DNA of 64,000 nucleotides, taken from IMG/VR virus record IMGVR_UViG_3300027974_001530; one strand, written 5' to 3'. This DNA is from a virus. Its lineage: Duplodnaviria > Caudoviricetes. The position numbers and the translations under genes were made by a program. Of this stretch, positions 2,851 through 61,225 are shown piece after piece. Position 1 is the stretch's first letter; each line of letters starts with the position of its first letter. A model generated the notes under the pieces. It was not told the DNA's origin. It did not search any database and saw nothing but the letters and a program-made list of their open reading frames with translations.

Positions 2851-3183
2851 TTAATAATTTCCATCTTCATCGTCGTAATCTTCATCTTCTTCACCAACTA
2901 TTGCGTAGTTAAGTTCATCAAGAATTACATTAACAGGGATCTCATCACCTTCTTCATTATAAAACATACCTTCAGTTCCATACTCAGAATAGTCAACAAG
3001 AGTAGACCCCTCTTCAACAAGTTCATTATACATGTCAATGACATCTTGTGGGTTAGCACTTTTTCCAAGTTCCATTCTAACACCCTCATACATACTTGGG
3101 ATACGAATCATACCCTCTTTATTTTCATTAATTACACGTTTAACAATACGTGATAAGTCTCTTTCTGTTAATCTATTTCTCAT
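2851..3183 (-). CDS. Acidic protein with LTExDL leader
   Basis: MRNRLTERDLSRIVKRVINE leader; paralogous C-terminus with 3207-3539. Confidence 0.85.
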   Translation of the reverse strand: MRNRLTERDLSRIVKRVINENKEGMIRIPSMYEGVRMELGKSANPQDVIDMYNELVEEGSTLVDYSEYGTEGMFYNEEGDEIPVNVILDELNYAIVGEEDEDYDDEDGNY

Positions 3184-3206
3184 TTTTATGTTTTTTATAT
3201 TTTTTA

Positions 3207-3539
3207 TTATGCATATTCTTCATCATCAAAGTCTTCGTCCTCATCGGCATTATAAAAACCTTCTTGGTTTAATAATTTTTCAATTTCATCAGCTAAATCT
3301 TCATTATTATCAGCATATAACGCCTCAATAATATCAAATTCATCCATTGAATTGATTTCTTCAATGTCATATCCACATTCATTTTCAAGGAAATCTCTCG
3401 CCTCTTCAATTAACTCTTGAAGTTCTTCACTATAGTACGGATCATACATACTTCTGTCTTTATAGTTGTCATTTTCATTAATTACACGTTTAACAATTCT
3501 TGTTAAATCTGATTCTGTTAGTCTAATTACTTTTTTCAT
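3207..3539 (-). CDS. Acidic protein with LTExDL leader
   Basis: MKKVIRLTESDLTRIVKRVINE leader; TATTTAT upstream. Confidence 0.85.
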   Translation of the reverse strand: MKKVIRLTESDLTRIVKRVINENDNYKDRSMYDPYYSEELQELIEEARDFLENECGYDIEEINSMDEFDIIEALYADNNEDLADEIEKLLNQEGFYNADEDEDFDDEEYA

Positions 3540-3578
3540 TAAATGTTTTATTAATAAATATTCAATATACGATTTAAA

Positions 3579-3821
3579 TCACCACTTTCTTTTTTTATCA
3601 AGTTTTTTTGTTTTTTGATCCTCGATCATAGTTGCGTACTCATCTTTGGTTAATCTTTTAAAAGACTCATTATCCACATTACCAAATCTTTTTTTTGCAC
3701 TCGCCATTACTTGGATGAAGTTCTTACTCCACAAAATATTTGACCCTGCGACTTTACCGTTTTGAATTATATCAAAAACGTATAGGTATTCTCCTTCTTT
3801 ATTTTTCATCAACTTTTCCAT
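3579..3821 (-). CDS. Hypothetical protein
   Basis: ORF track 3579-3953 trimmed to MEKLMK because the upstream part overlaps tRNAs. Confidence 0.65.
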   Translation of the reverse strand: MEKLMKNKEGEYLYVFDIIQNGKVAGSNILWSKNFIQVMASAKKRFGNVDNESFKRLTKDEYATMIEDQKTKKLDKKRKW

Positions 3822-3840
3822 CTTCACTTTTTTTTGTTTG

Positions 3841-3914
3841 TACCTCCGGCAGGACTCGAACCTGCAAAATTCACTTTCTAAGAGTGACGTGTATACCAAT
3901 TCCACCACGAAGGC
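3841..3914 (-). tRNA. tRNA-Leu(UAG), short variable loop
   Basis: Leu-type D-arm, loop CU-UAG-AA, variable region only AUUUU. Confidence 0.88.
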
Positions 3915-3921
3915 ATTTTTG

Positions 3922-3994
3922 AGCTCAGGGAGGGATTCGAACCCCCGTACCAAGGTTTTGCAGACCTGGGCCTAAACCACTCGACCACCTGAGC
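3922..3994 (-). tRNA. tRNA-Cys(GCA)
   Basis: Loop CU-GCA-AA, U73. Confidence 0.92.
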
Positions 3995-3996
3995 AA

Positions 3997-4452
3997 TTAA
4001 CGGCAGTGGTGATCTGCCGCTCTTGTTGCAATTTGATTGTCAGGTTTAATATTTGCTTTATAACCTAACGACGTTGCCCACCCAACAACAGGAGAAACAA
4101 GTTTTGAACTGTAATGTTTATCTTCACAATTATAATCCAAATCTATTTCAACCTTAACTTTTACTTTTTGAGTTAACCATTCGGCAACCTCAATTGAATA
4201 ATCGGCTTCATTCCAAAGACGTGTCCACTTGTCTTTTATTTTTTTCACTTTTTGTTTGTGTAGGATGTAGTGAACACCACGATTACCATACCTGTAAGCA
4301 ATTACCGTAACATATACGGTACTTCTTCTATGGTTTTGTGAATCGGTTCCAATATGGATCTCAACCCATGGACATTCCTTTAAAACATCTAAGGTGTGTT
4401 TAACCACATCAGGTATCGCTTCACCATTAATTGTCCTAAATACTCTGTTCAT
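3997..4452 (-). CDS. RNase H-like protein (YkuK/DUF458-like)
   Basis: Motifs IHIGTDSQ, RLWNEADYS, EIDLDYN, RAADH. Confidence 0.7.
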   Translation of the reverse strand: MNRVFRTINGEAIPDVVKHTLDVLKECPWVEIHIGTDSQNHRRSTVYVTVIAYRYGNRGVHYILHKQKVKKIKDKWTRLWNEADYSIEVAEWLTQKVKVKVEIDLDYNCEDKHYSSKLVSPVVGWATSLGYKANIKPDNQIATRAADHHCR

Positions 4453-4468
4453 TATTTCTTTTTATTTG

Positions 4469-4541
4469 TGGACAGAGAGGGTGTCGAACCCCCGACTCCA
4501 GGATCTTCAATCCTGAGCTCTACCAACTGAGCTACCTGTCC
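4469..4541 (-). tRNA. tRNA-Phe(GAA)
   Basis: Cloverleaf, loop UU-GAA-GA. Confidence 0.93.
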
Positions 4542-4548
4542 TTCTTCA

Positions 4549-4601
4549 GGGAGGACTTGGTTGAGGTATCCTAATGGTTCTACCCTCAACTCTCGCCTCC
4601 C
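4549..4601 (-). other. GC-rich two-helix hairpin between CDS and tRNA-Phe
   Basis: GGGAGG/CCUCCC plus GUUGAG/CUCAAC. Confidence 0.45.
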
Positions 4602-4604
4602 GTC

Positions 4605-5099
4605 TTATTTAACTTCAAACGCATGAAGTAATACACGTTTTTTCTTGGTTGAATCCTCGTGGTTACCAATTACCACACCATCTTTGATTGTGAAAGCGTG
4701 ACGACTAACTAACATAAAGAATGTCCCAATAGGGTTTTGTTTTGTAAATGTACCCACAGTCATTTTACGTTTAACTCTCTCACCCTTTACTTTAACATCG
4801 TACTCCAAAGTGTGTCTACGGTAATTGTTTAATTTACCAACACACTTAACTTTTTTGTAGTTTACTTGACTTCTATTTTCTGCAAGTTTAGTCATTTTAT
4901 CTACAGTACCATAAGTACCGTTACGATCTCTACGACCAAAATTTTCTCTAACGTATTTGTGAGCGTAATCGTAAGACACATCAAAACAAGATGCAAATGC
5001 TCTTACAACACAATCGTTGGTTTCATTTTTTGCGATTGCAGATTCTTCATAACCTTTAATGGCTTTTCCTGTATTACAATATGGTAGTGCGTCTTTCAT
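4605..5099 (-). CDS. Hypothetical protein (NDCVVRA...H motif, possibly papain-like fold)
   Basis: 164-aa ORF; host-type promoter at 5101-5134. Confidence 0.75.
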   Translation of the reverse strand: MKDALPYCNTGKAIKGYEESAIAKNETNDCVVRAFASCFDVSYDYAHKYVRENFGRRDRNGTYGTVDKMTKLAENRSQVNYKKVKCVGKLNNYRRHTLEYDVKVKGERVKRKMTVGTFTKQNPIGTFFMLVSRHAFTIKDGVVIGNHEDSTKKKRVLLHAFEVK

Positions 5100-5145
5100 A
5101 CTGTAAAGATACGAAATTTTTTTTAACTGGCAAAATTAATTTTTG

Positions 5146-5216
5146 CACATGGTGTTAGAATCGAACTAACCCGTCGAGGTTTTGGAGACCTGACCGACAC
5201 CTTGTCTGTACCATGT
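5146..5216 (-). tRNA. tRNA-Trp(CCA)
   Basis: Loop CU-CCA-AA, G73, short D-loop. Confidence 0.88.
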
Positions 5217-5224
5217 GTGTTTTG

Positions 5225-5297
5225 TACCCCCACAGAGATTCAAACTCCGATCTTTCCCTTAGAAGGGGAACGTCCTGTTCAGTTGGACGATGGGGGC
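5225..5297 (-). tRNA. tRNA-Arg(UCU)
   Basis: Stem UUCCC/GGGAA, loop CU-UCU-AA. Confidence 0.92.
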
Positions 5298-5301
5298 AAA
5301 T

Positions 5302-5478
5302 AAAAGATGATAAATGACTTTATCAGGAATCTGGGGTTCGTATCACTACGACGCTTCACACACCATTAGAGAGTTGGGTTGTTACATCAATACAATTAAG
5401 ATTGAATACCTTTCCTTAGTGTGTACCCTTACGACACGTCTCTCCACGTCTGTCATTCTACGTTTCTTATCATCTTTT
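5302..5478 (-). ncRNA. Candidate structured ncRNA (~175 nt)
   Basis: Perfect 12-bp closing stem AAAAGAUGAUAA/UUAUCAUCUUUU, then AAUGAC/GUCAUU, hairpins ACGU/ACGU and UCGUA/UACGA. Confidence 0.55.
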
Positions 5479-5479
5479 G

Positions 5480-5552
5480 TACCTTCGGCGAGACTCAAAC
5501 TCACATCTTGTGGTCCGTAGCCACAGGTTCTATTCTATTTAACTACGAAGGT
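5480..5552 (-). tRNA. tRNA-Arg(ACG)
   Basis: Stem UGUGG/CCACA, loop CU-ACG-GA. Confidence 0.92.
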
Positions 5553-5568
5553 AATTAAAGAATTTTGG

Positions 5569-5643
5569 TCAACCACTCGCATCCCACCAATCTCTTGTAT
5601 CAAACTTTCTGTAGTCCAAACGATAACATCTCCTACTACTCAT
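5569..5643 (-). CDS. Possible micro-ORF MSSRRCYRLDYRKFDTRDWWDASG
   Basis: Manually read 24-aa ORF between tRNA-His and tRNA-Arg(ACG). Confidence 0.3.
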   Translation of the reverse strand: MSSRRCYRLDYRKFDTRDWWDASG

Positions 5644-5687
5644 TCTCAACTCACTTGCCTAAGCCTTGTCCGTTGTAAATTCTTTTG

Positions 5688-5761
5688 GGTGAATGGTGGG
5701 TTTCGATCCCACTACTTTCGGCTTCACAAACCGACGCTCTCCCGATTGAGCTACAAACACC
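5688..5761 (-). tRNA. tRNA-His(GUG)
   Basis: Loop UU-GUG-AA, G-1:C73 pair. Confidence 0.9.
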
Positions 5762-5767
5762 ATATAG

Positions 5768-5835
5768 TCCCGTATGTTGGACTTGAACCAACCTCAAGTC
5801 GGATATGAGCCAACTTTGATCCCTGATCATACGGG
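5768..5835 (-). tRNA. Compact (68 nt) tRNA(CAU), presumed elongator Met
   Basis: Acceptor CCCGUAU/AUACGGG, minimal D-arm GAU-CAGGG-AUC, 6-bp anticodon stem AGUUGG/CCGACU, loop CU-CAU-AU. Confidence 0.75.
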
Positions 5836-5849
5836 TTGTTGTTTTATAT

Positions 5850-5932
5850 CTATCCGGAAATTTTCCTAATAGATTATTCAATTGTAGATGTCTATCCGGA
5901 AAAAAAGTCATCCTATCCGGAAAATTTCCGGA
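5850..5932. repeat. CTATCCGGAAA x3 plus one inverted TTTCCGGA
   Basis: Copies at 5850, 5892 and 5913; inverted copy at 5925. Confidence 0.8.
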
Positions 5933-5941
5933 TTTTAATCG

Positions 5942-6027
5942 AGGAAGACATTGGAATCGAACCAAATACCCTTACGGGTACATCTCGCTTAGCAGGCGGA
6001 CCCTATCTCCATCAAGGTTTATCTTCC
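5942..6027 (-). tRNA. tRNA-Ser(GCU)
   Basis: Long variable arm GUACCC-GUAA-GGGUAU, loop CU-GCU-AA. Confidence 0.9.
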
Positions 6028-6085
6028 ATAGAGTGTGGTACTCCTGCAGTAGTTGGGGCACCCACACAAGTTATTCCCCTTTTTG

Positions 6086-6158
6086 TGCTCACGATAGGTT
6101 ACGATCCTATTCTCTCCACGATATCAGCGTGGTGCTTTCCCGATTAAGCTACGTGAGC
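6086..6158 (-). tRNA. tRNA-Ile(GAU)
   Basis: Stem CCACG/CGUGG, loop CU-GAU-AU. Confidence 0.92.
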
Positions 6159-6165
6159 ATTGTTG

Positions 6166-6238
6166 CGGACAAGGTAGGGTACGATCCTACAACCCTCGTA
6201 TTAACAGTACGATGCTCTCCCAATTGAGCTACTTGTCC
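6166..6238 (-). tRNA. tRNA-Asn(GUU)
   Basis: Stem UCGUA/UACGA, loop CU-GUU-AA, G73. Confidence 0.93.
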
Positions 6239-6244
6239 ATTTTT

Positions 6245-6330
6245 TGGTGGGAGAGGAGGGACTCGAACCCCCAAGGTCTCACGACGACAGATTTACAGTC
6301 TGCTGAGCCAACCAATTGCTCAACTCTCCC
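6245..6330 (-). tRNA. tRNA-Tyr(GUA)
   Basis: Loop CU-GUA-AA, long variable arm, encoded CCA. Confidence 0.93.
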
Positions 6331-6338
6331 AGTTCAGG

Positions 6339-6454
6339 AAAGGGGAAGATGGTTCCGTGGACATCCCCTTTTATGATTGGCGTTACTATGACAGTTAAAA
6401 CTCCGACATAACTACGAACTACTGACACGTTAACGTTATATCATTCCCCAATCA
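6339..6454 (-). ncRNA. Candidate structured ncRNA (~115 nt)
   Basis: Stems UGAUUGG/CCAAUCA, GAUAUAAC/GUUAUGUC and AAAGGGGA/UCCCCUUU. Confidence 0.45.
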
Positions 6455-6461
6455 ACCTTTG

Positions 6462-6535
6462 TACACCCTACAGGGATCGAACCTGTGACCTGTTGTATGT
6501 AAAACAACCGCTACTACCATCTGAGCTAAAGGTGC
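6462..6535 (-). tRNA. tRNA-Val(UAC)
   Basis: Stem GUUGU/ACAAC, loop UU-UAC-AU. Confidence 0.92.
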
Positions 6536-6537
6536 GT

Positions 6538-6753
6538 TTATGATGTTATCATTTTAATACTTTCAATTGTGGTAGAGTACATTCCTTGTTCAATATAAGG
6601 TTTACTATCTTTTAATAGTTTCAAAACAATTTCTGTTGCCTCGTTTTCGGATTTACCTTGTTTAACCAATCTTACGATTGCTCTCTCACATTCTTCCCCA
6701 ACCTTAACCATTCCGTTTGGCAGTCCTTTTTTAATTTTCTCTACTTTATTCAT
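6538..6753 (-). CDS. Hypothetical protein
   Basis: 71-aa ORF behind promoter TTTGGTAG...TAACTTTG (6755-6789). Confidence 0.7.
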   Translation of the reverse strand: MNKVEKIKKGLPNGMVKVGEECERAIVRLVKQGKSENEATEIVLKLLKDSKPYIEQGMYSTTIESIKMITS

Positions 6754-6796
6754 AGTACAAAGTTAATGGTTTTTTTTAATCTACCAAATTTTTTTG

Positions 6797-6872
6797 TGTC
6801 CCCGACAGGGTTCGAACCTGTGACCCCTCCATTAAAAGTGGAGTGCTCTGAAACCAACTGAGCTACGAAGAC
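6797..6872 (-). tRNA. tRNA-Lys(UUU)
   Basis: Stem CUCCA/UGGAG, loop CU-UUU-AA. Confidence 0.93.
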
Positions 6873-6877
6873 ATTAG

Positions 6878-6953
6878 TCGGGATACCAGGACTCAAACCT
6901 GGATGATGTCCACTTCCCAAAAGTGGCGACTTAGTCAATTAGTCCACATCCCG
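6878..6953 (-). tRNA. tRNA-Pro(UGG)
   Basis: C1:G72, loop UU-UGG-GA. Confidence 0.9.
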
Positions 6954-6959
6954 TTATAG

Positions 6960-7043
6960 AGGAAGAAGTAGGTGTCGATCCCAATACCTTTCGGTACCGC
7001 CCGTTTTCAAGACGGGGTCACAAGCCGTTGTGATTCATCTTCC
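6960..7043 (-). tRNA. tRNA-Ser(UGA)
   Basis: Stem CCCGU/ACGGG, loop CU-UGA-AA, long variable arm. Confidence 0.9.
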
Positions 7044-7049
7044 TTATTG

Positions 7050-7121
7050 TTGTTCCCCAAGGGTTCGAACCTCGATTCCATGGACCAAAACCATGTGTCC
7101 TGCCGATTAGACGAGGGAACA
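7050..7121 (-). tRNA. tRNA-Gln(UUG)
   Basis: U1:A72, stem CAUGG/CCAUG, loop UU-UUG-GU. Confidence 0.92.
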
Positions 7122-7158
7122 TTAATGAATCCAATATGTCAAAGAACTTTTTCTTTTG

Positions 7159-7231
7159 AGGTTCCTATCAGGGTCGAACTGATGACTCCGGGTTACAAAG
7201 CCGGGATATTACCAAACTATACTAAGGAACC
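7159..7231 (-). tRNA. tRNA-Thr(UGU)
   Basis: Acceptor GGUUCCU/AGGAACC, loop UU-UGU-AA. Confidence 0.9.
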
Positions 7232-12503: not shown

Positions 12504-14585
12504 TTAAGAATCAAATCTACAATATTGGTCAAATAATGGGTCAGTTGTTAAATCAGGTTTATTAGCACTTACCCACTCGTCATATGAAAAAATTAATACT
12601 AAATCAACATCACTAGTGTTTGTGTAAGTAAATTTTAACATTGTCAAATCTTTTCCGTCTTTATTAACTTTTGTTTCTCCTTCATATTTAATGTCGGTAG
12701 CTAAAACTTTTTTCTTTATAAACTTAGAAATAACCGATTTTTCATATAACATTGTTTTAACTTTATCTATTTCGGCTGAAGGAACTTGTTGTTTAGTAAC
12801 AATAGGTGTTTTTGATCCTTCTTTAACAAAAACTATTTTTGATGGTATTGATGTTCTATCTGTTGTGTATGTACCATTTGAAGTATCATATGGTGTAACT
12901 GTTATTCCAGATATAACAGTTCTTGGGGATGAGTTATCCGTTGGGTTCTGAAAATAAGTAACATACGACTTGTTATCAACAGGGTGAAATATAAATTGAT
13001 CCATTACGATATCCGTCCAACCGTTTGAGTCTCTTAGATATTCTTTTAAATCTGCCTCAGAAACGTAAGCATAATCTTCAATCATTACGTCTATCATTTT
13101 CACCGCAGTTTCATAACCAATTCTTAAAATAGGTGCCGCCCCAAAAAGTCCGCCACCTAACATATCTTTACCGGTTTCATAACCAAGTCTCATTAAAAGT
13201 TCGCCACTTGTTTCACCAACTTTTGGTCCTTGATTGTACTCCCTAAGTTTATCGGCAAATTGTATTGTAAAAATAAGAGTGTTAAATCCCGCCCATCTTT
13301 TTAACATATCTTTAAATGTTCCAAATTTACCCGTATTTAAACTTTGACCAAATAATAGACTTTTAATTGTTGATATCCATTCTCCATTACTCATGTAAGC
13401 ATCCCACCCCATAAAGGACTTAGTATTAAAAAACCAATTACCTGACTTTTTAATGTCTTCAAAAACTGCGGTACTAATTGCATCAATATCCGACTCAGTT
13501 AAAGCCTTTCCTGTTCCAGCACCACCCCCAAGTTTTTTAAGTACTTGAGCGGTATTTGTGATTGTACCTTGTAAAGGTTGAAATTGTTCTCCAAGTTTGA
13601 TTCTATTTAAAAATTCATTTTCAATATTGTTCCAAAACTTATTGTATTTTTCAGGGTTTTTCTTTGCAATATTGTTTAAAATTCTACAAGCTCTTGTATC
13701 ACAACCAGCCAAACGTTCTTGAAACATTTTCTGAGCCTTTTGTTTTTGGTCTAATGGTATATCATTATTATTAATAACATCTTCAATCTCAAAATCTATT
13801 GTAATTGGTTCTTCTAAATCTCTTTTTAAAATAGTAAATTCCGCATCATCTATTAAGGCCATAATCTCATCTTCCTCTCTTGCAATAATATCAATATAAG
13901 AGTCAGGATCATTTTTTTCAAAGATTTCTTCTTGCAAATCGGCCAAATACTTCTTTACATTATCGGGAGCATCATCCGAAACTTTATTTAAATCTTGAGC
14001 TAAAATACCCCACATTTCTGGATTTGCATCAAAAATAGTAGATTTTTTAACACCACCTGATTTCTCAATTACCGCCAATAAATCTAATAAAGTTGCATTT
14101 TTATTATTAATTTGTACATTCTTAGACAACTGAACGGTTCTAAGCATTGACGCAACATCACCATCCATAGTTAAAAGAGTTTGTACATTAAGACCCGCCA
14201 ATCTTCTTTCTATATTTCTTGATGCCTTTGCTAATACTTTTTTTAAGTCATCACCACTATCTGTTAATGTTTTTCTTAATGATGCAACAACAAATGGATC
14301 AGTTAAATCACCAGCAATACGACCACCAAGTTCATTTTGAGCGTCTATAAGTTCCTTCATATAGATTTTTTCCTCATCGGCTAAGGTTTTATAGAATTCT
14401 GCCGCTTCTTCATTAGAATATCTAAAAAATTTCCTAACTAATTCTATCATTTCTTGTTTGGGACCTATAGCCGCCTCATTAATTAGTATTTTTTTTATTA
14501 AATTTCTTGATTCATTTAAAGGGTTAGTCTTAAACCCCATTAAATTTTTTATTCTGATTATTTCATTTATTTGATTTCTAACCAT
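12504..14585 (-). CDS. Large putative virion/ejected protein
   Basis: 693 aa; INEIIRIKNLM...LNE...LINE leader, Gly-rich hydrophobic segments. Confidence 0.85.
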   Translation of the reverse strand: MVRNQINEIIRIKNLMGFKTNPLNESRNLIKKILINEAAIGPKQEMIELVRKFFRYSNEEAAEFYKTLADEEKIYMKELIDAQNELGGRIAGDLTDPFVVASLRKTLTDSGDDLKKVLAKASRNIERRLAGLNVQTLLTMDGDVASMLRTVQLSKNVQINNKNATLLDLLAVIEKSGGVKKSTIFDANPEMWGILAQDLNKVSDDAPDNVKKYLADLQEEIFEKNDPDSYIDIIAREEDEIMALIDDAEFTILKRDLEEPITIDFEIEDVINNNDIPLDQKQKAQKMFQERLAGCDTRACRILNNIAKKNPEKYNKFWNNIENEFLNRIKLGEQFQPLQGTITNTAQVLKKLGGGAGTGKALTESDIDAISTAVFEDIKKSGNWFFNTKSFMGWDAYMSNGEWISTIKSLLFGQSLNTGKFGTFKDMLKRWAGFNTLIFTIQFADKLREYNQGPKVGETSGELLMRLGYETGKDMLGGGLFGAAPILRIGYETAVKMIDVMIEDYAYVSEADLKEYLRDSNGWTDIVMDQFIFHPVDNKSYVTYFQNPTDNSSPRTVISGITVTPYDTSNGTYTTDRTSIPSKIVFVKEGSKTPIVTKQQVPSAEIDKVKTMLYEKSVISKFIKKKVLATDIKYEGETKVNKDGKDLTMLKFTYTNTSDVDLVLIFSYDEWVSANKPDLTTDPLFDQYCRFDS

Positions 14586-45467: not shown

Positions 45468-45791
45468 TTAATTATAGTAATTTTCAAAATACTTTTTTAT
45501 AGTGTCATCATACCTTGAGTCCAAAAATCGTTTAATTGGTATAGAGAACTGTTCCCAAGTTTCATCCCCCCAACATATTTCAATACCATATTCTAAATCA
45601 AGTTTGTCATAGGTAAAATTACATACGGATTCAACAAAACTTTCAATCGAAGACCTAACACCAACCAACACTTCCATAGCTTTAATAACAATCTTATCAA
45701 GTGCATCAATATCCAACCTTCGTTTAATACAGTTAGATAATTGATAATAATCCAATGATTGTTTTTGACTTTCAGTTATAATGATTTTCAT
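45468..45791 (-). CDS. RR family protein with IIITE leader
   Basis: MKIIITESQ...IKRRL. Confidence 0.75.
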   Translation of the reverse strand: MKIIITESQKQSLDYYQLSNCIKRRLDIDALDKIVIKAMEVLVGVRSSIESFVESVCNFTYDKLDLEYGIEICWGDETWEQFSIPIKRFLDSRYDDTIKKYFENYYN

Positions 45792-48255: not shown

Positions 48256-48984
48256 TTAACGTTGTAGTTTTGTTTTAACTTTAGACACCATATTTTGTAT
48301 TCCTTGTTTGGCCTTGTCAACCACAGGTGCCGCAAGTGATTTAAGTTCTTGACCAACAATCTTAACTTGTCCTTTTAAATCTGCATTATTAAAATTTTGA
48401 TATTTTTGAGCGGTAATACCCATAGCATAGAAGTCCTTCATGTAGTTGTAAATGTTTGTGGTTTCCTTTGATTGTCCTAAAGTTGTAAGATTAAGATCCC
48501 CCAGACTAGATCTCCACATATAGAATCCTGGTTTTTTTTCTGTGGGACCACTAGTTGTCATCTCCCACTTATCTTTTCTAGATAAGGTATTTAAAAACTC
48601 CTTATCTTCTTCAGTTGGTTTAGTATAAATCGGACCAACATATTTTCCACTCTGATCAACACCAGTAAATGTGGTTAGTAGATCAGGTGTAATCTTTTCA
48701 ACATTAAGATCAACTGCCGACTGATAATCTATTAAAATTAGTTTATAATATTTCTGTTGTTGAGAATCAACCTGTAGTTGAAATGAAAGTGAAAGAGTTC
48801 CTTTTTTGGCTTCAACAAGTTTAGCGTTAGAATTATTAATAGTAAAACCGTTTTTCTTTAGGTCTTCAAAAATTTCATTCGAAAAGTCTTTAACTTCTTG
48901 TTCAGAAATAAGTGGCCTAACATCCCCCATTGTGGATTCCATCAATTGGTTAAATCTATTTTTATAATCTCGAATTGTGTTCAT
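48256..48984 (-). CDS. Hypothetical protein with LMES..PLISEQ leader
   Basis: YKNRFNQLMESTMGDVRPLISEQ. Confidence 0.85.
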   Translation of the reverse strand: MNTIRDYKNRFNQLMESTMGDVRPLISEQEVKDFSNEIFEDLKKNGFTINNSNAKLVEAKKGTLSLSFQLQVDSQQQKYYKLILIDYQSAVDLNVEKITPDLLTTFTGVDQSGKYVGPIYTKPTEEDKEFLNTLSRKDKWEMTTSGPTEKKPGFYMWRSSLGDLNLTTLGQSKETTNIYNYMKDFYAMGITAQKYQNFNNADLKGQVKIVGQELKSLAAPVVDKAKQGIQNMVSKVKTKLQR

Positions 48985-48994: not shown

Positions 48995-49435
48995 TTAATC
49001 AATCTTTAGTGAATTTAGTGAAGATGAAGACATAGATGTACTTAATGCTGATGGTGAGGTATTTGTGGGGGTAAATTTCACATTTTTCTTAATGGACTCC
49101 AATCCAGCTCCCGTGGCCTCCACAGGTTTAGGGTATTTTTTATTTGCCGGAGTATTTGGTTGTCCCATAAAATAATATTTGCCAGTTAAAGGCAGATAAA
49201 TGTAGATGTAATTCTTATCGTGAGTTTTATTAATTATAGGACGCATTGATTTTTGTGTTTGAGTTCCTCCAGATGTGGTAACAGTACCTCCCGTTGTTTG
49301 TGTAGATCCTGTGGTAACAGTTCCCCCTGTAGTTTGAGTGGTTCCTGACTGTTCCATTATTAACGGTCTAACATCACCCATTGTGGATTCCATTAAGTTG
49401 TAAAATCTTTTTTTATAATCGTTAATGTTTTTCAT
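48995..49435 (-). CDS. Thr/Gly-repeat protein with LMES..PLIMEQ leader
   Basis: YKKRFYNLMESTMGDVRPLIMEQ; TQTTGGTVTT repeats. Confidence 0.85.
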   Translation of the reverse strand: MKNINDYKKRFYNLMESTMGDVRPLIMEQSGTTQTTGGTVTTGSTQTTGGTVTTSGGTQTQKSMRPIINKTHDKNYIYIYLPLTGKYYFMGQPNTPANKKYPKPVEATGAGLESIKKNVKFTPTNTSPSALSTSMSSSSLNSLKID

Positions 49436-49782: not shown

Positions 49783-50061
49783 TTAACAATTACGTTCGTA
49801 GTATATTTCAGTTAACTCAACATAGAACATATCCTTTAGTTCAGACATAATCCCATCGTAGTCAAAATCATCCATCAAATAATATACAGGGTGAAGTTCA
49901 TCCATCATAATGTTTACAAATCTTCTTTCGTATTCATCAAAAGATTTAAACTTACAAGGAGTAATAGTGTCAAGGGTTTCTTCAAAACTATTCTCAACTA
50001 ACTTATATCTTCTTAGTAACCACCATCTATTATTTTGTGCTTCCGTAATAATAATCCTCAT
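49783..50061 (-). CDS. RR..PC family protein with IIITE leader
   Basis: MRIIITEAQ..WLLRRY...TPCKF. Confidence 0.8.
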   Translation of the reverse strand: MRIIITEAQNNRWWLLRRYKLVENSFEETLDTITPCKFKSFDEYERRFVNIMMDELHPVYYLMDDFDYDGIMSELKDMFYVELTEIYYERNC

Positions 50062-52098: not shown

Positions 52099-52452
52099 TC
52101 ATCTTTTATTTTTATGATATAATTTGTAAATTTCATCAGAATAATTTCCTTGAATATACTCCGCTAATACATTGTAATATGTGTCATATACCTTATCAAC
52201 AACTGACTGATCATATTTTTCATCTTCTTCATCTACAGTATAACCAATACTATCAATATAATCCGACAATAAATCATTTATTATTAAATCGGAAATTTCA
52301 TCAATAAGAGTTCTAAAACTACCTTTTAAATTGTGGTTACCATATGCTAATAAAATATTATTAACATATCCATCAATTCTTCTCAACATAGACGTTGGAA
52401 TAACTTCAGTTTCTTCAATCAGTATTCTTCTTATGTGTTCTTGTAGTTTCAT
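52099..52452 (-). CDS. RR family protein with LQE leader
   Basis: MKLQEHIRRILIEE..MLRRI. Confidence 0.8.
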   Translation of the reverse strand: MKLQEHIRRILIEETEVIPTSMLRRIDGYVNNILLAYGNHNLKGSFRTLIDEISDLIINDLLSDYIDSIGYTVDEEDEKYDQSVVDKVYDTYYNVLAEYIQGNYSDEIYKLYHKNKR

Positions 52453-52820
52453 ATTATTTCATTGTATCTTTCTTTTATTCTACTCCCATAATTTTTAAGA
52501 AGTGGTTTTCTAATTTTATCATAATAGAAATCGTCGTCCTCAAAATATATACGATTATCATCATTAAAATAATCTTGTTCTAAATATGTTACCATCTCAT
52601 CAATTACAAATTTAGCAAATAATCTTAATGTAGTTCCCTTTTCTTTATATATTACCGAATTTGGGTTTTCCATTGATCCTCCCATTCTATCTAACGCCGA
52701 TTCAAAAGCCTCTTCTATATTTTCAGCCGATACTCTTCTTCTAATAATTAAAGGTATATCGGATTCATTAATCGCCCCCATCATTGATTGTATCCTTGAT
52801 ATTTGTTCTTGTAGGTTCAT
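52449..52820 (-). CDS. RR family protein with LQE leader
   Basis: MNLQEQISRIQSMMGAINE..IIRRRV. Confidence 0.8.
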   Translation of the reverse strand: MNLQEQISRIQSMMGAINESDIPLIIRRRVSAENIEEAFESALDRMGGSMENPNSVIYKEKGTTLRLFAKFVIDEMVTYLEQDYFNDDNRIYFEDDDFYYDKIRKPLLKNYGSRIKERYNEII

Positions 52821-53596
52821 TACTCTTTTATTTCAGGGAGTTTAGTGTCCTTCATAAATTTATTATGTGATGCTTTGTATGATTTTTGTGTCTCGTCATT
52901 CTCATCTTTGGTGTATTGCCAGTTCCAATATAAATTATCGTTTGGTTTGAACCCGTAGAATTCATGTACTTCTTTTTGTATTTTGGTTACATTCTCACCA
53001 TTCCAATTCTGTCCCACACAAATAAATCCTGTTTCAATATCTTTGATAATGTTAGATTCACCCAATGTTGTATGTCTATTCTCCAACCAGTTTAATCTCT
53101 CAATTAAATTTTGGTAATACATATTTGCTTGTCCCCATCTTATTGAACTAAAAAATATAACTGCGTCTGACTCAAATAACTCTTTTGATATCTTCCACAA
53201 CTCATCTGAAGGTTCATTAATATTAACCCAACATCTGTGATCCCCTGATGGGTTCTTTTTCTTATCTTTAAGTGCGGCTTTTAATACTCCACAACTGTTT
53301 CCATCTTTTCTTGATACATTACCCTCACAAGGTAATATTTTAAGTTCGGGAACATCAATCAATACTGACTTATCTCCCAACTCATCGTTCAAGTACATTG
53401 CTATCATCTTGGACTTTGGTATGTCTATATTCTTTTCATCAAAATTATATCTATTGGAACAACTAAGTAGTAATACTTTTTTCTTATCTTTAAGGATATC
53501 TAAAGTTTGTTTGATTGATTTCCATGCATCTGATTGAACCATCTCCTCAGATATCATCATTGATCTTATTTTTGATATTTGTTCTTGTAAGTTCAT
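52820..53596 (-). CDS. Flavodoxin-like (NAD(P)H-dependent FMN reductase/WrbA-like) protein with LQE leader
   Basis: LLLSCS, ILPCEG..S...C, ESDAVIFFSSIRWG; MNLQEQISKIRSMMISEE. Confidence 0.7.
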   Translation of the reverse strand: MNLQEQISKIRSMMISEEMVQSDAWKSIKQTLDILKDKKKVLLLSCSNRYNFDEKNIDIPKSKMIAMYLNDELGDKSVLIDVPELKILPCEGNVSRKDGNSCGVLKAALKDKKKNPSGDHRCWVNINEPSDELWKISKELFESDAVIFFSSIRWGQANMYYQNLIERLNWLENRHTTLGESNIIKDIETGFICVGQNWNGENVTKIQKEVHEFYGFKPNDNLYWNWQYTKDENDETQKSYKASHNKFMKDTKLPEIKE

Positions 53597-53598: not shown

Positions 53599-54009
53599 TT
53601 ATATTTTTTCAAAAGTTACAAATGAAATGGTTAATGATTTTTTTTCGGTGTCATCAATAAAATCAAGTATTTTTTTTACATTTTGTACTTCTATCAATTT
53701 AACAGTTCCACTTTTACCTTTAAAATTATATCCTACTAATTTTTTACTGCCATCCCCAAAATCTTCTACAACATGATCCACATCCACAATGTTAATAAAT
53801 TTACCATTAGGTGCTTTAATTTGCATTTTGATCAAGGTTTTATTTTTGTCCTCAATTTGGAATTTGTGTGGTTCTTCTATGAGGTCCAATTTGAATTGTC
53901 TACCTAAAATTTTATCGGTACTCAAATCAATTGATTCTAATAATATTAAATCAGAATTATTATAATTTATCATTTCTCTAATTCTTTGTATGTTCTCTTG
54001 TATGTTCAT
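53599..54009 (-). CDS. Hypothetical protein with IQE leader
   Basis: MNIQENIQRIREM..ILLE. Confidence 0.8.
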   Translation of the reverse strand: MNIQENIQRIREMINYNNSDLILLESIDLSTDKILGRQFKLDLIEEPHKFQIEDKNKTLIKMQIKAPNGKFINIVDVDHVVEDFGDGSKKLVGYNFKGKSGTVKLIEVQNVKKILDFIDDTEKKSLTISFVTFEKI

Positions 54010-54010: not shown

Positions 54011-54370
54011 TTAATACTCATCATCACAGATTCTACCGTCAAATTGATTTATAAGGTAATTACCATATTTTTTAGTTAATAAGTGCCATATAATTTCTTC
54101 AATTTCTGACATTTCATGTTTAACATAAAGTTCATCACTAAAATGATTAATAAAATTAGAACTTGCAACTTCAAAAATTACATCTTTATAATCTTCAGAT
54201 GTACTATAACCACAAGGACTAATTTGATCGGTTAAACTATCAATTTGTTCATTTAGGTATTCTTTTATATCTTGGGTTTCCAGTCTTCTTAATAACCAAA
54301 TCTTATTTTTATATGACTCATTCAGATTCATCATGGATCTAATCCTTTGTATGTTTTCTTGTGGATTCAT
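54011..54370 (-). CDS. RR..PC family protein with PQE leader
   Basis: MNPQENIQRIRSMMNLNE..WLLRRL...SPCGY. Confidence 0.8.
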   Translation of the reverse strand: MNPQENIQRIRSMMNLNESYKNKIWLLRRLETQDIKEYLNEQIDSLTDQISPCGYSTSEDYKDVIFEVASSNFINHFSDELYVKHEMSEIEEIIWHLLTKKYGNYLINQFDGRICDDEY

Positions 54371-56198: not shown

Positions 56199-58529
56199 TT
56201 AATATCTTTTTTTAATTTCAACAGTATGAACAATATCCAAATAAAAATCTTCAAGGTCTCTTTCACCTGATGTAATTTTATTAATAACCTCATCTCTACG
56301 ATAAGCGGTATTATCTACAATAAACTCAAGCATTTCTTCATCAGTAATATCTTCAGGTTTAACTGGTTCAGGAATACAATCGTGGTTTCTATCAAATAAA
56401 TCAACATCATCAAAATAAAAACCTGTTTCACCAACTATTTGTTCAAACTTTGGGATCATAGTATCTTCATACCATTCCTCTATTATGCTCGTCACAAAGT
56501 TTTTTCTTGCGTTAAAAATTCTCATTATCTTTTCTACTAATGTTTTTGTTATCAGTAATGAACCACTATAAAATTTACCGTCTTCGTAATAGTATATTGC
56601 GGTAATAACTTCTTTACCGTTAACACACCAATCCTCACGAAGATTACCATAGTTACGAGATTTTTTACCTATTTCTCTATTACCACCCTCAATATAATCA
56701 TCAAGAAATAATGTGATAACTTTTCTAAGACTATCTGTGGATTTAAGGTATCTTTGTCTTTGGTCTTCTTCCCTCAATACTTTTATTATGTTTTCTTTTA
56801 AATCTGTTCCCCCACCATCTAACTTATCAGTAAACCCCATAAGTTTATCAAATGCTGGATGTGACATTATTGGTTCTTTTTTCTTATCTTTCATCTGATT
56901 CCAAGTTGACGGTTTAACTTTCATATGGTTCTTAACAAGATATTTAATTTCATCAACATCCATTCCTTCAAATGATTCAATCCAATCTTTATATCTTTCA
57001 ACATAGTCCGTTGATTTATCTTCGTGTCCGTACGCCGTTGGTTGATTTGTTTTTGGATTTATTTTATATGTGTCTATCTTACCTAAGTCGTGAAATAATG
57101 CCGCCATTACCATGTTTGGATCATCAGGATAGTGATGGTAAGCTCGTTTAATAACAACAATAATATGTTTAAGAGTATTCCCTTCAGGATGCCATTCAGG
57201 ATTTTGTTTTGCCCCCCATTGTTTGAATAAAAGTTCTTTTAATTCCTTTGGTAAGTTCTTAATTAACTCCTGTGGTGTCGCATGAAGTTTTTCTTCCCTC
57301 AATACTCTTCTTATAGATTCTTGCATATTTCTTGGTTCAAATTTTTCTCTATTTTTCCAAATCTGTCCACCTTGATCTAATTGATTTCGTCCTTTTGTTT
57401 TTGAATTAACAATTGGAAGGCCAAAGTAGTCTGATATTTTTTGATATACTATTGTTGCAATTCCTTGTCCTCTATATTTTTCAGGAATAACAATATCTCC
57501 TACATATATTTCACCATCATTAATTACAATGTTCATTTGTCCAAGATCAACAACACCGTCTTCACTGGTAATATCTTGGTCGTCAACCATAATAATAATA
57601 TTTTGAATTTTACCAAAATGATTATACATATTCCGACCTAAACGAATTTGAACTCTATCTTCTTCAATTCTTGTTGATGGGTCTGAAAGTTTAAATGGGT
57701 TTCTTATGTTATTTTTATGTTCATCGGATTCCCACATTTCTCGTTTATTAATATTCTCCTGTTCTTTAATATTAAAAATAAAATGTATTCTCCATTTATT
57801 AATTATTCTATCGGAAATATTATACATAAAATCATCATAATCAATCCCTCCCCAAATACCATTAAACGTCAGATTTACATCAACTTCAAACATAGGAATT
57901 CTACTTATACCTTTTTTTATTTCTATATTTAGAATACTTATTTTATCTATAGTATCAACAACATCGCAACCATCAAACGATAACCAATCAGGGAAAGTAT
58001 CCGCATCAGGCACTTCACAAATATTTTTAATTTCATCAAGTGTTTGATCAACGATGTTTTGGAATGTCCCAATCATTGTTTTTTTATTTAACTTATTATC
58101 ATTAGTTGATTCCATTAATCCCCAATCCTTACCTGTACCTTCATGTTTTAATGTTATTGCATTTGCAGGTATGTTTTCAAATGTTACTATATGTTTTGAT
58201 CTTGATTCATAGTGTTTATCTTTATACCACTTAACATCAGGTATCATTTCAGTATTAATTTCCCATACATCGTCATCGTATGTGGAATCAAAAGACGCTC
58301 TTTTATTTGTTGAGTTGGTTGCAAAGATTGCTGGTATACATTTTTCACCGTAACCCGCATAAATTTTATAACATTCTCCAGCTCTTACTTTTAAACCTTC
58401 ATTTGTTATTTTATCTCTAACCTTTGGATTAGATTTATGTATAACAATTTTGTTTGGTATTATTTCTTTACCCGCAGGACTATATTCATCTTCCCTTAAT
58501 ATTCTTCTTATGGATTCCTGTAGGTTCAT
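56199..58529 (-). CDS. Polyprotein: ART-like + unknown + GNAT + HD + unknown, separated by QE/KE..ILREE linkers
   Basis: Leader MNLQESIRRILRE, internal MQESIRRVLREE (57326) and LKENIIKVLREE (~56801); RGQGIA GNAT motif; WHPEGNTLKH...ALFHDLGK HD motif. Confidence 0.85.
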   Translation of the reverse strand: MNLQESIRRILREDEYSPAGKEIIPNKIVIHKSNPKVRDKITNEGLKVRAGECYKIYAGYGEKCIPAIFATNSTNKRASFDSTYDDDVWEINTEMIPDVKWYKDKHYESRSKHIVTFENIPANAITLKHEGTGKDWGLMESTNDNKLNKKTMIGTFQNIVDQTLDEIKNICEVPDADTFPDWLSFDGCDVVDTIDKISILNIEIKKGISRIPMFEVDVNLTFNGIWGGIDYDDFMYNISDRIINKWRIHFIFNIKEQENINKREMWESDEHKNNIRNPFKLSDPSTRIEEDRVQIRLGRNMYNHFGKIQNIIIMVDDQDITSEDGVVDLGQMNIVINDGEIYVGDIVIPEKYRGQGIATIVYQKISDYFGLPIVNSKTKGRNQLDQGGQIWKNREKFEPRNMQESIRRVLREEKLHATPQELIKNLPKELKELLFKQWGAKQNPEWHPEGNTLKHIIVVIKRAYHHYPDDPNMVMAALFHDLGKIDTYKINPKTNQPTAYGHEDKSTDYVERYKDWIESFEGMDVDEIKYLVKNHMKVKPSTWNQMKDKKKEPIMSHPAFDKLMGFTDKLDGGGTDLKENIIKVLREEDQRQRYLKSTDSLRKVITLFLDDYIEGGNREIGKKSRNYGNLREDWCVNGKEVITAIYYYEDGKFYSGSLLITKTLVEKIMRIFNARKNFVTSIIEEWYEDTMIPKFEQIVGETGFYFDDVDLFDRNHDCIPEPVKPEDITDEEMLEFIVDNTAYRRDEVINKITSGERDLEDFYLDIVHTVEIKKRY

Positions 58530-59926
58530 ATTTCCTCTTCTATTTTTTTTTGTTTAAGTGGTGGATCCAATAAAAACTTATTATTAATCCAATTTCTTAA
58601 TTCATTTTCAACAAAAAATTCTGGAACTTCGTTATCTTCAGGCATAGTTGACGCTAGTTCAGCAATGTATCTGGCAAATTTAACTTTATATTTATTATCC
58701 ATTAAGGTCATTAATCCATCGGATATAAAAAAAATTCTAGATAATGGATCAGATAAATTTAATTCACCTTCAGTTAAATCAAACATTTTCATTACCACCT
58801 TACCCCACCAAGTCTTATAACTTGTTGTTTCTTCTAAGGTTGGTCTTAAAACTTTATTAACCGCTCTAACAATTGAACCTGTAAAACCGGCAATTGCCAA
58901 TTGTGGAATAAACCAAGGTAATAATCGTATTGTTGCTTTAACACCTCCCTCACCTACGTGTTGAAATAATCTTCTGCTAGTCGCGGAATCAACTATAGCC
59001 TTTAATTGACCAAATGTTATTTTACCTTGAGAACTACAAAATTTTTCTGAATCACAAATGTTTTTTAAAGCATTTTTGTCGGGATTTGTTTCATTTAACC
59101 CAATCAATGATTGTGATCTTAATGTTTGTTCAGTTAAAGGATCAAAGTATCTACCTTCTAAGTCAATGTCTCTAACTTCAAGACCTGAGTTATCCTCGAA
59201 CCATTTTTTAAAGACAGGAATCCATTTATCTCCAAATAATAATGTTAACCCATTGTTTACCCATTTTGTGATCACTAAGGCATATAAATAATCATACCCA
59301 TCCCACTCACCAAGATAAGCGTAAGCAAAGAGATCGTTTATCTCAAAGTCATAACTCCCATGTTTATTTACATCATCCCTATAAAAATCATGTAATTCTG
59401 GACCCCAATTATAATCAGGATGATATTCTTCTTTTAAATATTGATATATAAATTCATTAAGATCTTCTCCATCAAAATTTAATATCTTTATTAATCTTTC
59501 TACACTACCAACCGCCTTTGCCGTTTTTTTAATTCCTATAGTACGAATCATTCGGGACAAATTATCTTGTATTGTTTCTTCCCTCAGTATTTTTATTACT
59601 GATTCATTTATACCATATTTTCTTTTTATTAAGTCGTATCTTTCTTCTATTCTTTCATCATAATATTTTCTAAGAACATAAAAAACATCATCATACCATT
59701 GTAACTCATTTGGGAGGGTATATACCAATATATTGTGTATTCCGTCTATGGTCATTGATAATATGGTATTTCTAAATGTGACCAATGGTACAATACTACC
59801 ACTTTCTTTAAGATTTATTGAACATTTATTTGAAATCGTATCTAAACACTCGGTAAATTCCATTTCTAAATACTCAGGACTTACTCTACGTAAAATTAGA
59901 TTTAATGTTTTATCGTTTATGTTCAT
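58526..59926 (-). CDS. Multi-module protein with internal INE..ILREE linker
   Basis: RR module, INESVIKILREE, LNE, then a C-terminal ITFGQL module with a hydrophobic segment. Confidence 0.85.
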   Translation of the reverse strand: MNINDKTLNLILRRVSPEYLEMEFTECLDTISNKCSINLKESGSIVPLVTFRNTILSMTIDGIHNILVYTLPNELQWYDDVFYVLRKYYDERIEERYDLIKRKYGINESVIKILREETIQDNLSRMIRTIGIKKTAKAVGSVERLIKILNFDGEDLNEFIYQYLKEEYHPDYNWGPELHDFYRDDVNKHGSYDFEINDLFAYAYLGEWDGYDYLYALVITKWVNNGLTLLFGDKWIPVFKKWFEDNSGLEVRDIDLEGRYFDPLTEQTLRSQSLIGLNETNPDKNALKNICDSEKFCSSQGKITFGQLKAIVDSATSRRLFQHVGEGGVKATIRLLPWFIPQLAIAGFTGSIVRAVNKVLRPTLEETTSYKTWWGKVVMKMFDLTEGELNLSDPLSRIFFISDGLMTLMDNKYKVKFARYIAELASTMPEDNEVPEFFVENELRNWINNKFLLDPPLKQKKIEEEI

Positions 59927-59985
59927 ATTAATAAATACGACCATAAGATAAAACTGACTATTTTATAATTAACATAGTTGTTGTA

Positions 59986-60279
59986 TTAATAAAAATCATA
60001 ATTTGTTTTATAGTACTCTACAAACTCTGATGTAATTTTTATTTTTTTTATATTAATGTTAAGTGTTGAGGATAGAAAACTTTTAATCTTGAATATGTTT
60101 GGTGTTTTAGATATTCTACCGAAAATACCATCTACAGGACCTAAAGTTATGACTAATTTTATGACGTATTGATCATCCCCAAAATCTTTAGGTTCTTTTA
60201 AAACATTTATTTGCACATCTTCCATTTCTTGGTAAACATGCGTATTAAGTAATTGTTTTATTAGTTTGGATTTGTCCAT
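59986..60279 (-). CDS. Hypothetical protein
   Basis: Start moved to MDKSK, behind TATATTTG (60284-60291). Confidence 0.7.
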   Translation of the reverse strand: MDKSKLIKQLLNTHVYQEMEDVQINVLKEPKDFGDDQYVIKLVITLGPVDGIFGRISKTPNIFKIKSFLSSTLNINIKKIKITSEFVEYYKTNYDFY

Positions 60280-60489
60280 ACTACAAATATACAAAATATT
60301 TTTTAATTTAATAATAATATAAATAAAAAACCCCATCCATGTGATGAGGTTTATTTTATTTTAATACCTGTAATTTTTTTAAATCTTTGTTTTAGTTTTA
60401 TTCTCAAATACCTATTAACAACTTTACTGATGTTTTTTTCTTTTTCTAACAACCTCATTTTTAGATCGTCCTCTGTTCTTATATTCATA

Positions 60490-60723
60490 TTAAATTAATT
60501 TAAAATTTTCTGTAGTTAACAATTTAACTATTCGTTTCTCAGATACTGAGTTAATTGCTGGTCTTGTTGCAACTTCAGTTATCCCCTTGGAAAATACTAC
60601 TTGAAACTTCTCTGTGTTTTTAATGTAAAACCTTGATACATGACAGTATTCTCCTTTGTCATTAACAAAATTACCAAAAGATTTGGCCATTAATAGTTGT
60701 CCGAGTGTGATTTTATTTTCCAT
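60490..60723 (-). CDS. Hypothetical protein
   Basis: Start moved to MENK, behind TATCTTTG (60728-60735). Confidence 0.7.
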   Translation of the reverse strand: MENKITLGQLLMAKSFGNFVNDKGEYCHVSRFYIKNTEKFQVVFSKGITEVATRPAINSVSEKRIVKLLTTENFKLI

Positions 60724-60775
60724 ACCACAAAGATATGTGAAATTTATTAACCCCACAAATAAATTTATTTATTTC

Positions 60776-61225
60776 TTAAGATTCTTCTATCTGTTCTGAA
60801 TCTAACACTACCGTTGTATTTCTACCGGCAAATGCTGGTTCGTAAGCAGCAACTGATTTAAATGGAAAAAATTTGTTCATTTCATCACGTAAAGTACCTA
60901 TAATCCAAGATTGCATATTACTGGCCATAAGATTTGTTTTAAAATATATTTTAATACGTACTTTATCCGGTCTATTTCTATTAACCTCAAGAAAAGATAT
61001 TTCAACATCATCAAATTCCACAAAATTAATAAAGTTTTTAACTAACATTTCTTGGGTTTCAATATCGGTAACATCCAAATTTAATATTTTTACAACATTT
61101 TTAAATCCTCCAACAACACTAGATACAAAATGAATACCTTTAGTTTCAAATAAATTTCTAACACTCTTTTGAATATCGGTATCTTCTTCCCTTAATATTT
61201 TTAATATTTTTTGATTGTCAAACAT
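60776..61225 (-). CDS. Hypothetical protein with ILREE leader
   Basis: KILKILREE..VVGG..VVKILN module paralogous to the middle of 58526-59926. Confidence 0.8.
   Translation of the reverse strand: MFDNQKILKILREEDTDIQKSVRNLFETKGIHFVSSVVGGFKNVVKILNLDVTDIETQEMLVKNFINFVEFDDVEISFLEVNRNRPDKVRIKIYFKTNLMASNMQSWIIGTLRDEMNKFFPFKSVAAYEPAFAGRNTTVVLDSEQIEES

Follow-up and report, generated by a model that had tools for sequence, protein, structure and literature searches.

Interchangeable N-terminal leaders on unrelated proteins of an uncultured T4-type jumbo phage suggest an enlarged capsid-targeting system

Why should dozens of genes in one stretch of phage DNA, encoding otherwise unrelated proteins, begin with one of a handful of short peptides? 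The question is raised by IMG/VR record IMGVR_UViG_3300027974_001530 (Duplodnaviria; Caudoviricetes), from which a stretch of 64,000 nucleotides, hereafter the window, was analysed. An earlier note on the window had described four classes of N-terminal leader, i.e., type A (MKKIIRLTESDLxRIVKRVIxE), type B (MKIIITExQ), type C, and type D, and had read them as marking an arsenal of proteins that, like the internal proteins of phage T4, are packaged into the head, matured by the prohead protease, and injected. Our analysis leads to a closely related answer, in which we place moderate confidence: the leaders probably constitute a greatly enlarged, multi-class variant of the T4 capsid-targeting and gp21-processing system. 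Those predictions of a T4-like reading that are testable by computation turned out as expected; packaging, cleavage, and injection stand as predicted steps.

Hidden Markov models (HMMs) were built from seed motifs and matches were counted at an independent E-value (i-E) below 0.01, with reversed and 5x shuffled sequences as controls. All four classes were recovered from the window, with 26 strict copies (seven of A, ten of B, six of C, and three of D), and none was matched in the controls. About ten further copies are divergent or internal. All of the open reading frames (ORFs) listed in the earlier note exist; its total of 35-40 leader-bearing ORFs is at the generous end, 26 strict copies plus the ten or so others being realistic, and the listed variants at 12504, 14653, 29271, and 39294 proved too divergent for HMM significance. 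The positions it gave are the low ends of minus-strand ORFs, the N-termini of which lie at the high ends. For five ORFs (43100, 44697, 45468, 48256, and 53599), the start is an internal methionine if the leader is taken as the true start. Once leaders had been stripped, a single BLAST-similar pair was left among 32 bodies, its two members bearing different leader types; the bodies are thus unrelated, as had been claimed.

The type A leader has a sharp C-terminal border. Column conservation stays above 3.3 bits through E22, except at variable positions 13 and 21, then falls off, with position 23 at 1.9 bits and every later position below 1 bit; columns 5-22 of this profile are partly fixed by the search pattern, with columns 1-4 and 23 onward being free. 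Among the 131 copies scored, the P3 residue is Ile in 109, Leu in 11, Val in 8, and Met in 3, and a final (I/L)-x-E is present in every leader class. Leaders A and B have their first half in common, a basic amphipathic helix is common to B, C, and the second half of A, and a further motif often precedes type D. An AlphaFold2 model of the protein encoded at 34978-35289 (mean predicted local distance difference test score of 68) places the leader helix at residues 9-24 with moderate confidence. None of the leaders has the hydrophobic core of at least 10 residues following a basic N-terminus that was taken as the mark of Sec, Tat, or lipoprotein signals; the leaders are charged and amphipathic, and the N-termini of true signal-peptide genes in the window (35421, 41207, 43501, 45861, and 25517) are unlike them. 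Across 109 distinct type A DNA copies, codons for Leu, Arg, Ser, Thr, and Val vary freely and the amino acids are 85-100% conserved, which argues for selection acting on the peptide, not on the DNA.

The same leader is widespread in public data. The protein from 34978-35289, used as a database query, retrieved dozens of metagenome proteins for which the first 22 residues alone are common (76-96% identity) and the bodies are unrelated. The type A core was found at 247 loci in IMG/VR. In a set of 1.84 billion proteins, a 30-column type A profile matched the representatives of 8,967 clusters formed at 50% identity, with 842 of these matches reaching E<=1e-10. Position at the N-terminus is the rule: in 1.2 Mb of related loci together with IMG/VR contig G001, a relative of the window described below, it holds for 212 of 219 copies of A, 64 of 68 of B, and 41 of 44 of C, and 122 of the 147 top database matches to the type A profile begin at residue 1. 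A 64-kb marine contig from a Prochlorococcus single-cell assembly also encodes a type A-like N-terminus ending L-I-E (L110:1826-2290); the tag family is therefore not confined to lake and gut phages. Pfam and PHROGs hold no families for the leaders or for most of the bodies, none of the four leaders occurs in immuto, a cultured T4-like Flavobacterium phage, and no description of these leaders turned up in the literature library searched.

Leaders also change bodies, and they persist within fused proteins. One body family carries a B leader at 42759-43109 and a C leader at 54011-54370. The 776-residue protein encoded at 56199-58529 has three type C tags, all ending L-R-E, with the internal ones at domain borders. 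Its last domain is a separate type B-led gene in another locus (L057; 63% identical), its second domain occurs as separate genes with B-like leaders in L025 and G001, and in G001 an internal tag lies ahead of its first domain. Two complete A tags are present in 19 of the 147 best database matches, the second with the usual basic residues ahead of it and no methionine, and in some phage orthologs of 34978-35289 a six-residue insertion creates a second L-N-E right after the first (alignment A3, P0015-P0017). That tags are kept at junctions would fit a role in cleavage or docking better than one purely at the start of a protein. With respect to gene turnover relative to G001, body-level homologs were found for 16 of 29 leader genes versus 38 of 53 others, a difference that is not significant (p = 0.15).

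What kind of phage carries these genes? The window has a G+C content of 28-38%, 21 tRNA genes at 13-7231, and genes almost all on the minus strand; a DNA-level search of GenBank phages with it gave no match. In IMG/VR, however, contig G001 (290,887 bp, 99% complete) proved colinear with the window when read in the opposite orientation, such that approximately 228-160 kb of G001 corresponds to window genes from approximately 1,400 to 64,000, with protein identities of 30-90%. In G001, genes for a terminase, a portal, a protease of the Peptidase_S77 family (T4 gp21-type), a scaffold-like protein of acidic character, and a capsid protein of the gp23 type lie in a single module, the protease gene at L083:12575-13291 and the scaffold gene at L083:13640-15397; we therefore take the window to derive from a T4-type jumbo phage. 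Just upstream of this head module, G001 encodes a 686-residue ClpB/ClpA-type double AAA+ ATPase (L006:13598-15655). A protein with CHU_C and SprB-repeat features, along with host-like TAnnTTTG promoter elements, points to a host among the Bacteroidota. The protein in question, 820 residues long and encoded by the phage at 25517-27979, combines an SprB repeat, a PKD-like domain, and a CHU_C type IX secretion signal; a TATTTAT motif lies ahead of its gene, and its G001 counterpart is 66% identical.

The S77 protease accompanies the leaders. It was detected in all five large lake contigs with leader A. A sister tag, i.e., the leader with a three-residue insertion (K-E-S), was found via a scan of bacterial genomes and occurs at 248 IMG/VR loci; all five complete rumen or gut phage genomes (295-412 kb) with this tag likewise encode S77. 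Beyond these ten, the protease was present in 13 of another 22 contigs, the majority being fragments; its presence in 8 of the 16 fragments estimated to be 19-48% complete fits a location of tagged genes near head genes. Among leader-bearing contigs, to which all of these counts are restricted, S77 was detected in 15 of the 17 that either reach 65% completeness or belong to the five largest from lakes. At rumen locus L118, four tagged genes directly adjoin the protease gene and the gene for an acidic scaffold-like protein, and at locus L133 a tagged gene is immediately upstream of those for terminase and portal.

The capsid protein itself may carry a site of the same kind. In an alignment of the G001 capsid protein with T4 gp23, L-I-N-E|A coincides with L-T-E|A, the established cleavage site in T4, from which it is predicted by homology that capsid maturation in G001 uses the same protease motif. 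The corresponding N-terminal stretch of the immuto capsid protein contains V-S-E|A. Between the portal and protease genes of immuto lies gp071 (L101:13578-14660), a candidate internal protein that opens with M-R-T-L-Q-E. At residue 24 it has F-I-A-E|A, and F-I-A-E is also how the targeting sequence of T4 IPII and IPIII ends. Near the N-termini of the S77 proteases from G001-G005, G-I-L-(I/V)-E is kept in all five (alignment A5, residues 10-16), a possible autocleavage site of the kind suggested for T4 gp21.

When would the tagged genes be expressed? TATTTAT lies 11-41 nucleotides upstream of 16 of 36 leader genes (70-nucleotide search range), with the remainder being downstream in the same operons. 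No leader gene has only a host-like TAnnTTTG element, versus eight other genes that do. In G001, TATTTAT precedes the genes for terminase, protease, scaffold, sheath, and other structural proteins, and is absent ahead of those for DNA polymerase and ribonucleotide reductase. Through this association with structural genes, the leader genes would appear to be late. Identity of the motif with the T4 late promoter was rejected, the coding strand reading TATTTAT, not TATAAATA. Two promoter-like classes can be recognized on both strands (e.g., upstream of 910-1191, 4605-5099, and 6538-6753), and an element of the Bacteroidota type (TTTG-N19-TAnnTTTG) stands ahead of a few small genes of the tRNA block and of signal-peptide genes. 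Wedged between minus-strand tagged operons are the plus-strand genes 35421-35978, 41207-41704, and 43501-43968, with hydrophobic signal-peptide-like N-termini and host-like TAnnTTTG promoters.

From these observations the following scheme can be proposed. The leader, a short N-terminal strand followed by an amphipathic helix, would probably attach a late protein, soon after its synthesis, to the scaffold core of the prohead under assembly. Once the shell has closed, cleavage behind the last Glu of (I/L)-x-E by the S77 (gp21-type) prohead protease would release the mature body into the head interior, from which it would exit together with the DNA when the next cell is infected. This route would be served by four or five classes of leader at minimum (A, B, C, D, and a fifth built on E-K-x-x-I-L-x-x-H), with bodies exchanging leaders among classes. 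Gene fusion keeps the tag at the junction, and within the head, multi-domain proteins such as that from 56199-58529 would be split into their separate parts.

The capsid-targeting sequence (CTS) of T4 is the closest known parallel. Processed N-termini in T4 are short peptides with the same end motif (PMC5694885, PMC3012670), and published work holds that the CTS brings all T4 internal head proteins into the core. As here, a short N-terminal peptide ending in (I/L)-x-E sits on unrelated bodies in a T4-type phage, and an S77 protease is encoded in T4 as it is in the relative G001. In the T4 record (AF158101), IPII and IPIII start MKTYQEFIAE, IPI has a 19-residue leader ending I-T-E, gp24 starts MAKINELLRE, and Alt starts MELITE. 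Type B, with seven residues ending I-T-E, resembles the last, and MKTYQEFIAE and MAKINELLRE resemble type C; for both B and C the resemblance spans 5-7 residues, a match too short to prove homology. In T4, ipI adjoins a tRNA cluster, as do genes 2851 and 3207 here, in a variable region. The differences are equally clear. Approximately 30 tagged genes in 64 kb compare with four or five in all of T4, the leaders form four or five classes of up to 28 residues, type A resembles none of the T4 peptides in sequence, and tags are also kept at internal junctions. T4 internal proteins are small, basic, and DNA-associated, whereas many bodies here are cell-wall enzymes, and unlike the T4 system these leaders are known from sequence alone.

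Other systems share single features. In phiKZ, 201phi2-1, and SPN3US, S80 proteases cut ejection or inner-body proteins at (S/A/G)-x-E; paralogs in giant phages share identical N-terminal propeptides that were proposed as targeting sequences (PMC5694885), and giant-phage heads hold tens of MDa of protein cargo (PMC7411985). Many head proteins are thus processed after Glu in these phages as well; however, their propeptides are long and mostly family-specific, with a small P3 residue, whereas the present leaders are short and common to unrelated families and, like those of T4, have a hydrophobic P3. Encapsulins similarly address diverse cargo into an HK97-fold shell by means of a short conserved peptide, but their cargo-loading peptides are usually C-terminal and not removed, with neither scaffold nor protease involved. 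Polyvalent proteins and polymorphic toxins likewise combine a constant address module with interchangeable effector domains, and include multi-domain fusions thought to be cut after delivery; there, the modules are whole domains of at least 100 residues tied to secretion systems or conjugation, in contrast to a peptide of 7-28 residues tied to a capsid protease.

What do the leaders carry? Only approximately 10 of 150 non-redundant tagged proteins have a Pfam domain, these being LysM (2), PG_binding_1, VanY, Phage_lysozyme, SET, HD, and a few weak ones. The bodies are small (median 124 residues) and hydrophilic, and show no bias in charge or isoelectric point of the kind seen in T4 internal proteins (median pI 5.7 vs 6.0). 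The earlier expectation of an anti-restriction arsenal found no support: no evidence for such functions was found among the tagged bodies, and those that can be identified mostly have domains that bind or degrade the cell wall, along with HD, GNAT, and SET.

Tagged genes also occur in bacterial chromosomes. In four different Bacteroidales genomes from gut and rumen, a gene with the sister tag adjoins one for an IS1595-like transposase (L106:2343-3603, L109:2389-3384, L111:2566-3333, and L112:2995-3594), and the body of one chromosomal copy belongs to the same family as a phage gene located beside the head protease. These copies look like rare phage-to-host transfers, and the tagged genes may ride on a transposon from phage to host.

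Several observations weigh against capsid loading. Leader A is absent from 50,697 GenBank phage records, such that no cultured phage deposited there has it. Evidence for the gp21-like protease that the earlier note expected in the genome comes from the colinear relative G001; one tagged contig that is 95% complete (317 kb) lacks S77, and another has a weak match only. When bacteria were searched for S77 (three of the four transposase-linked genomes plus two others with the sister tag), all five of these gut Bacteroidales genomes were found to have chromosomal copies without the protease, which shows that the sister tag can persist in its absence. TATTTAT also stands ahead of 11 non-leader genes in the window and of one helicase-like gene in G001; it therefore marks a gene class and not leader genes as such, and the earlier claim that leader genes or their operon heads follow this motif in place of the host promoter holds with that qualification. 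Within tagged bodies (I/L)-x-E is not depleted (observed/expected ratio 1.14 vs 1.16 in untagged proteins; tagged/untagged ratio 0.98, bootstrap confidence interval 0.88-1.10), hence no selection against self-cleavage is evident. Peptidoglycan is the target of more than half of the bodies that can be identified, and cell-wall enzymes suit proteins of the lysis stage equally as well as ejected ones. Finally, 22 conserved residues far exceed the needs of a cleavage site, and the docking partner that they would serve is itself a predicted one.

The principal rival starts from that last point, holding that the leader is a helix by which the proteins dock to some other common partner, that they are not loaded into capsids, and that the final (I/L)-x-E simply belongs to the helix. 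Candidate partners include a chaperone or unfoldase of phage or host origin, a site at the membrane or cell pole, or a different component of the virion, e.g., the tail. So long a conserved stretch implies a binding partner; the modelled helix at residues 9-24 is of only moderate confidence, the tag also works at internal and near-C-terminal positions, and both the peptidoglycan-directed bodies and the chromosomal copies in bacteria without S77 would be accommodated. A ClpB-like ATPase is moreover the commonest untagged neighbour (18 of 77 loci), and relatives encode a ClpB-type protein by their head genes. Yet this commonest neighbour family is found at 23% of loci only, one and the same tripeptide closes four or five unrelated classes at the very point where conservation breaks off, the leaders are strongly linked to S77 phages, and the predicted cut site of the capsid protein matches. 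We regard this rival as unlikely, albeit as the main competitor. Cleavage without packaging is decidedly improbable. Under that explanation, the leaders would be mere propeptides or junctions, cut by the prohead protease or some other Glu-specific enzyme in order to activate or separate late enzymes that are neither packaged nor injected. Tags at the domain junctions of fused proteins, six-residue insertions that duplicate the (I/L)-x-E site in some orthologs, and identifiable bodies that are enzymes potentially in need of timed activation would all suit it; however, T4-type proteases are active only within the closed prohead (PMC5694885), a tripeptide would be enough for cutting yet 7-28 residues are conserved, and a single leader cannot mask many unrelated active sites.

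Two further explanations were weighed. A tag serving as the recognition sequence of a modifying enzyme, in the manner of leaders of ribosomally synthesized and post-translationally modified peptides, would share the architecture of a common leader on variable cargo. The bodies here, though, are folded proteins of 70-750 residues and not peptides, and no enzyme family lies consistently within 10 kb of the tagged genes at 77 loci, where the top untagged neighbours are the ClpB-like ATPase (18 loci) and structural proteins. With no untagged family at more than 18 of the 77 loci, linkage to such an enzyme was rejected, and we consider this explanation highly improbable. As for the DNA, the earlier note had pointed to conservation of type A at the nucleotide level and to shuffling of leaders by recombination. 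A named 14-mer does occur exactly three times in the window (3511, 35261, and 46855) against an expectation of zero, and leaders have been swapped between homologous bodies; both would favour the leader DNA being mainly a recombination cassette for gene shuffling, its peptide having no function of its own. The purifying selection on the peptide seen across the 109 distinct copies, with synonymous sites free, largely refutes a DNA-level homology cassette as the main cause of conservation. The cassette is thus scarcely credible as the leaders' main role. The capsid-targeting reading accordingly remains the one we favour, and the individual copies are best surveyed with it in mind.

All copies in the window lie on the minus strand unless a plus strand is indicated. 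Type A opens 2851-3183 in a short form (residues 1-20, nucleotides 3124-3183; i-E 2e-7) and, over residues 1-22, 3207-3539 (nucleotides 3474-3539; TATTTAT 21 nucleotides upstream), 34397-34975, 34978-35289 (nucleotides 35224-35289; an operon head with TATTTAT), 43969-44478 (TATTTAT upstream), and 47858-48250. Divergent or weak type A leaders (residues 1-21) begin 23775-24305 (plus strand; TATTTAT upstream; G001 ortholog 89% identical) and 31230-31520, which is flanked by two cell-wall hydrolase genes. A complete type A leader is internal to the 246-residue ORF 46632-47372 (residues 164-185, nucleotides 46818-46883), representing either a fusion or a nested start.

Type B leaders begin 20644-21264 (plus strand; residues 1-7; TATTTAT upstream), 38018-38428, 38434-39291 (a variant), 42416-42745, 42759-43109 (with a body homologous to that of type C-led 54011-54370), 43100-43405, 44697-45155, and 45468-45791 (true starts at nucleotides 43405, 45155, and 45791, respectively), 47478-47852 (GTG start), and 49783-50061; a divergent copy below HMM significance begins 39294-39854, with TATTTAT upstream. 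Type C leaders are found on 52099-52452 (residues 1-13), 52449-52820 (residues 1-19), 52820-53596 (residues 1-17), 53599-54009 (25 residues; true start at nucleotide 54009), and 54011-54370 (residues 1-18; an operon head with TATTTAT). In the multi-domain protein of 56199-58529, which has GNAT-like and HD domains, the type C tags occupy residues 1-13, 402-412, and 577-587. Type D leaders of 28 residues begin 41726-42388 and 48995-49435 (residues 1-28 and TATTTAT upstream in both) and 48256-48984 (true start at nucleotide 48984).

Loose C-like N-termini, non-significant by HMM, are present on 12504-14585 (693 residues; a helix ending L-N-E; TATTTAT upstream), 14653-17127 (824 residues; a helix ending I-N-E), and 29271-29777 (168 residues; TATTTAT upstream); an ESM Atlas search with the 824-residue protein was uninformative. 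The fifth motif was recognized on an NlpC/P60 peptidase (30526-31227; E-K-x-x-I-L-x-x-H ... L-I-S-E) and on an M23 peptidase, where it ends L-N-E (31522-32259; TATTTAT upstream). It also occurs at the N-terminus of a 149-residue protein (19422-19871), and in relatives is joined to the type D motif to form composite leaders.

Ultimately, the existence of several classes invites a bolder thought, which we consider rather doubtful: the classes may form a readable address code, each specifying a different site or layer of the prohead core, a copy number, or an order of exit, and bacteria may smuggle proteins into phage heads via captured tagged genes. Were such a code real, the injected proteins of thousands of uncultured T4-type jumbo phages of Bacteroidota would be predictable from sequence. 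Should the tags load heads at all, the proteins injected by uncultured jumbo phages could be listed by sequence only: dozens in one genome versus a handful in T4, and thousands of distinct ones in public data, nearly all without assigned function, with leader A alone being carried by approximately 9,000 protein clusters. Injected proteins act in the first seconds of infection, in passage through the cell wall, take-over of the host, and counter-defence, and other ways of finding them are difficult. For phages of Bacteroidota, the tags would in addition be handles already available for the loading of foreign proteins.

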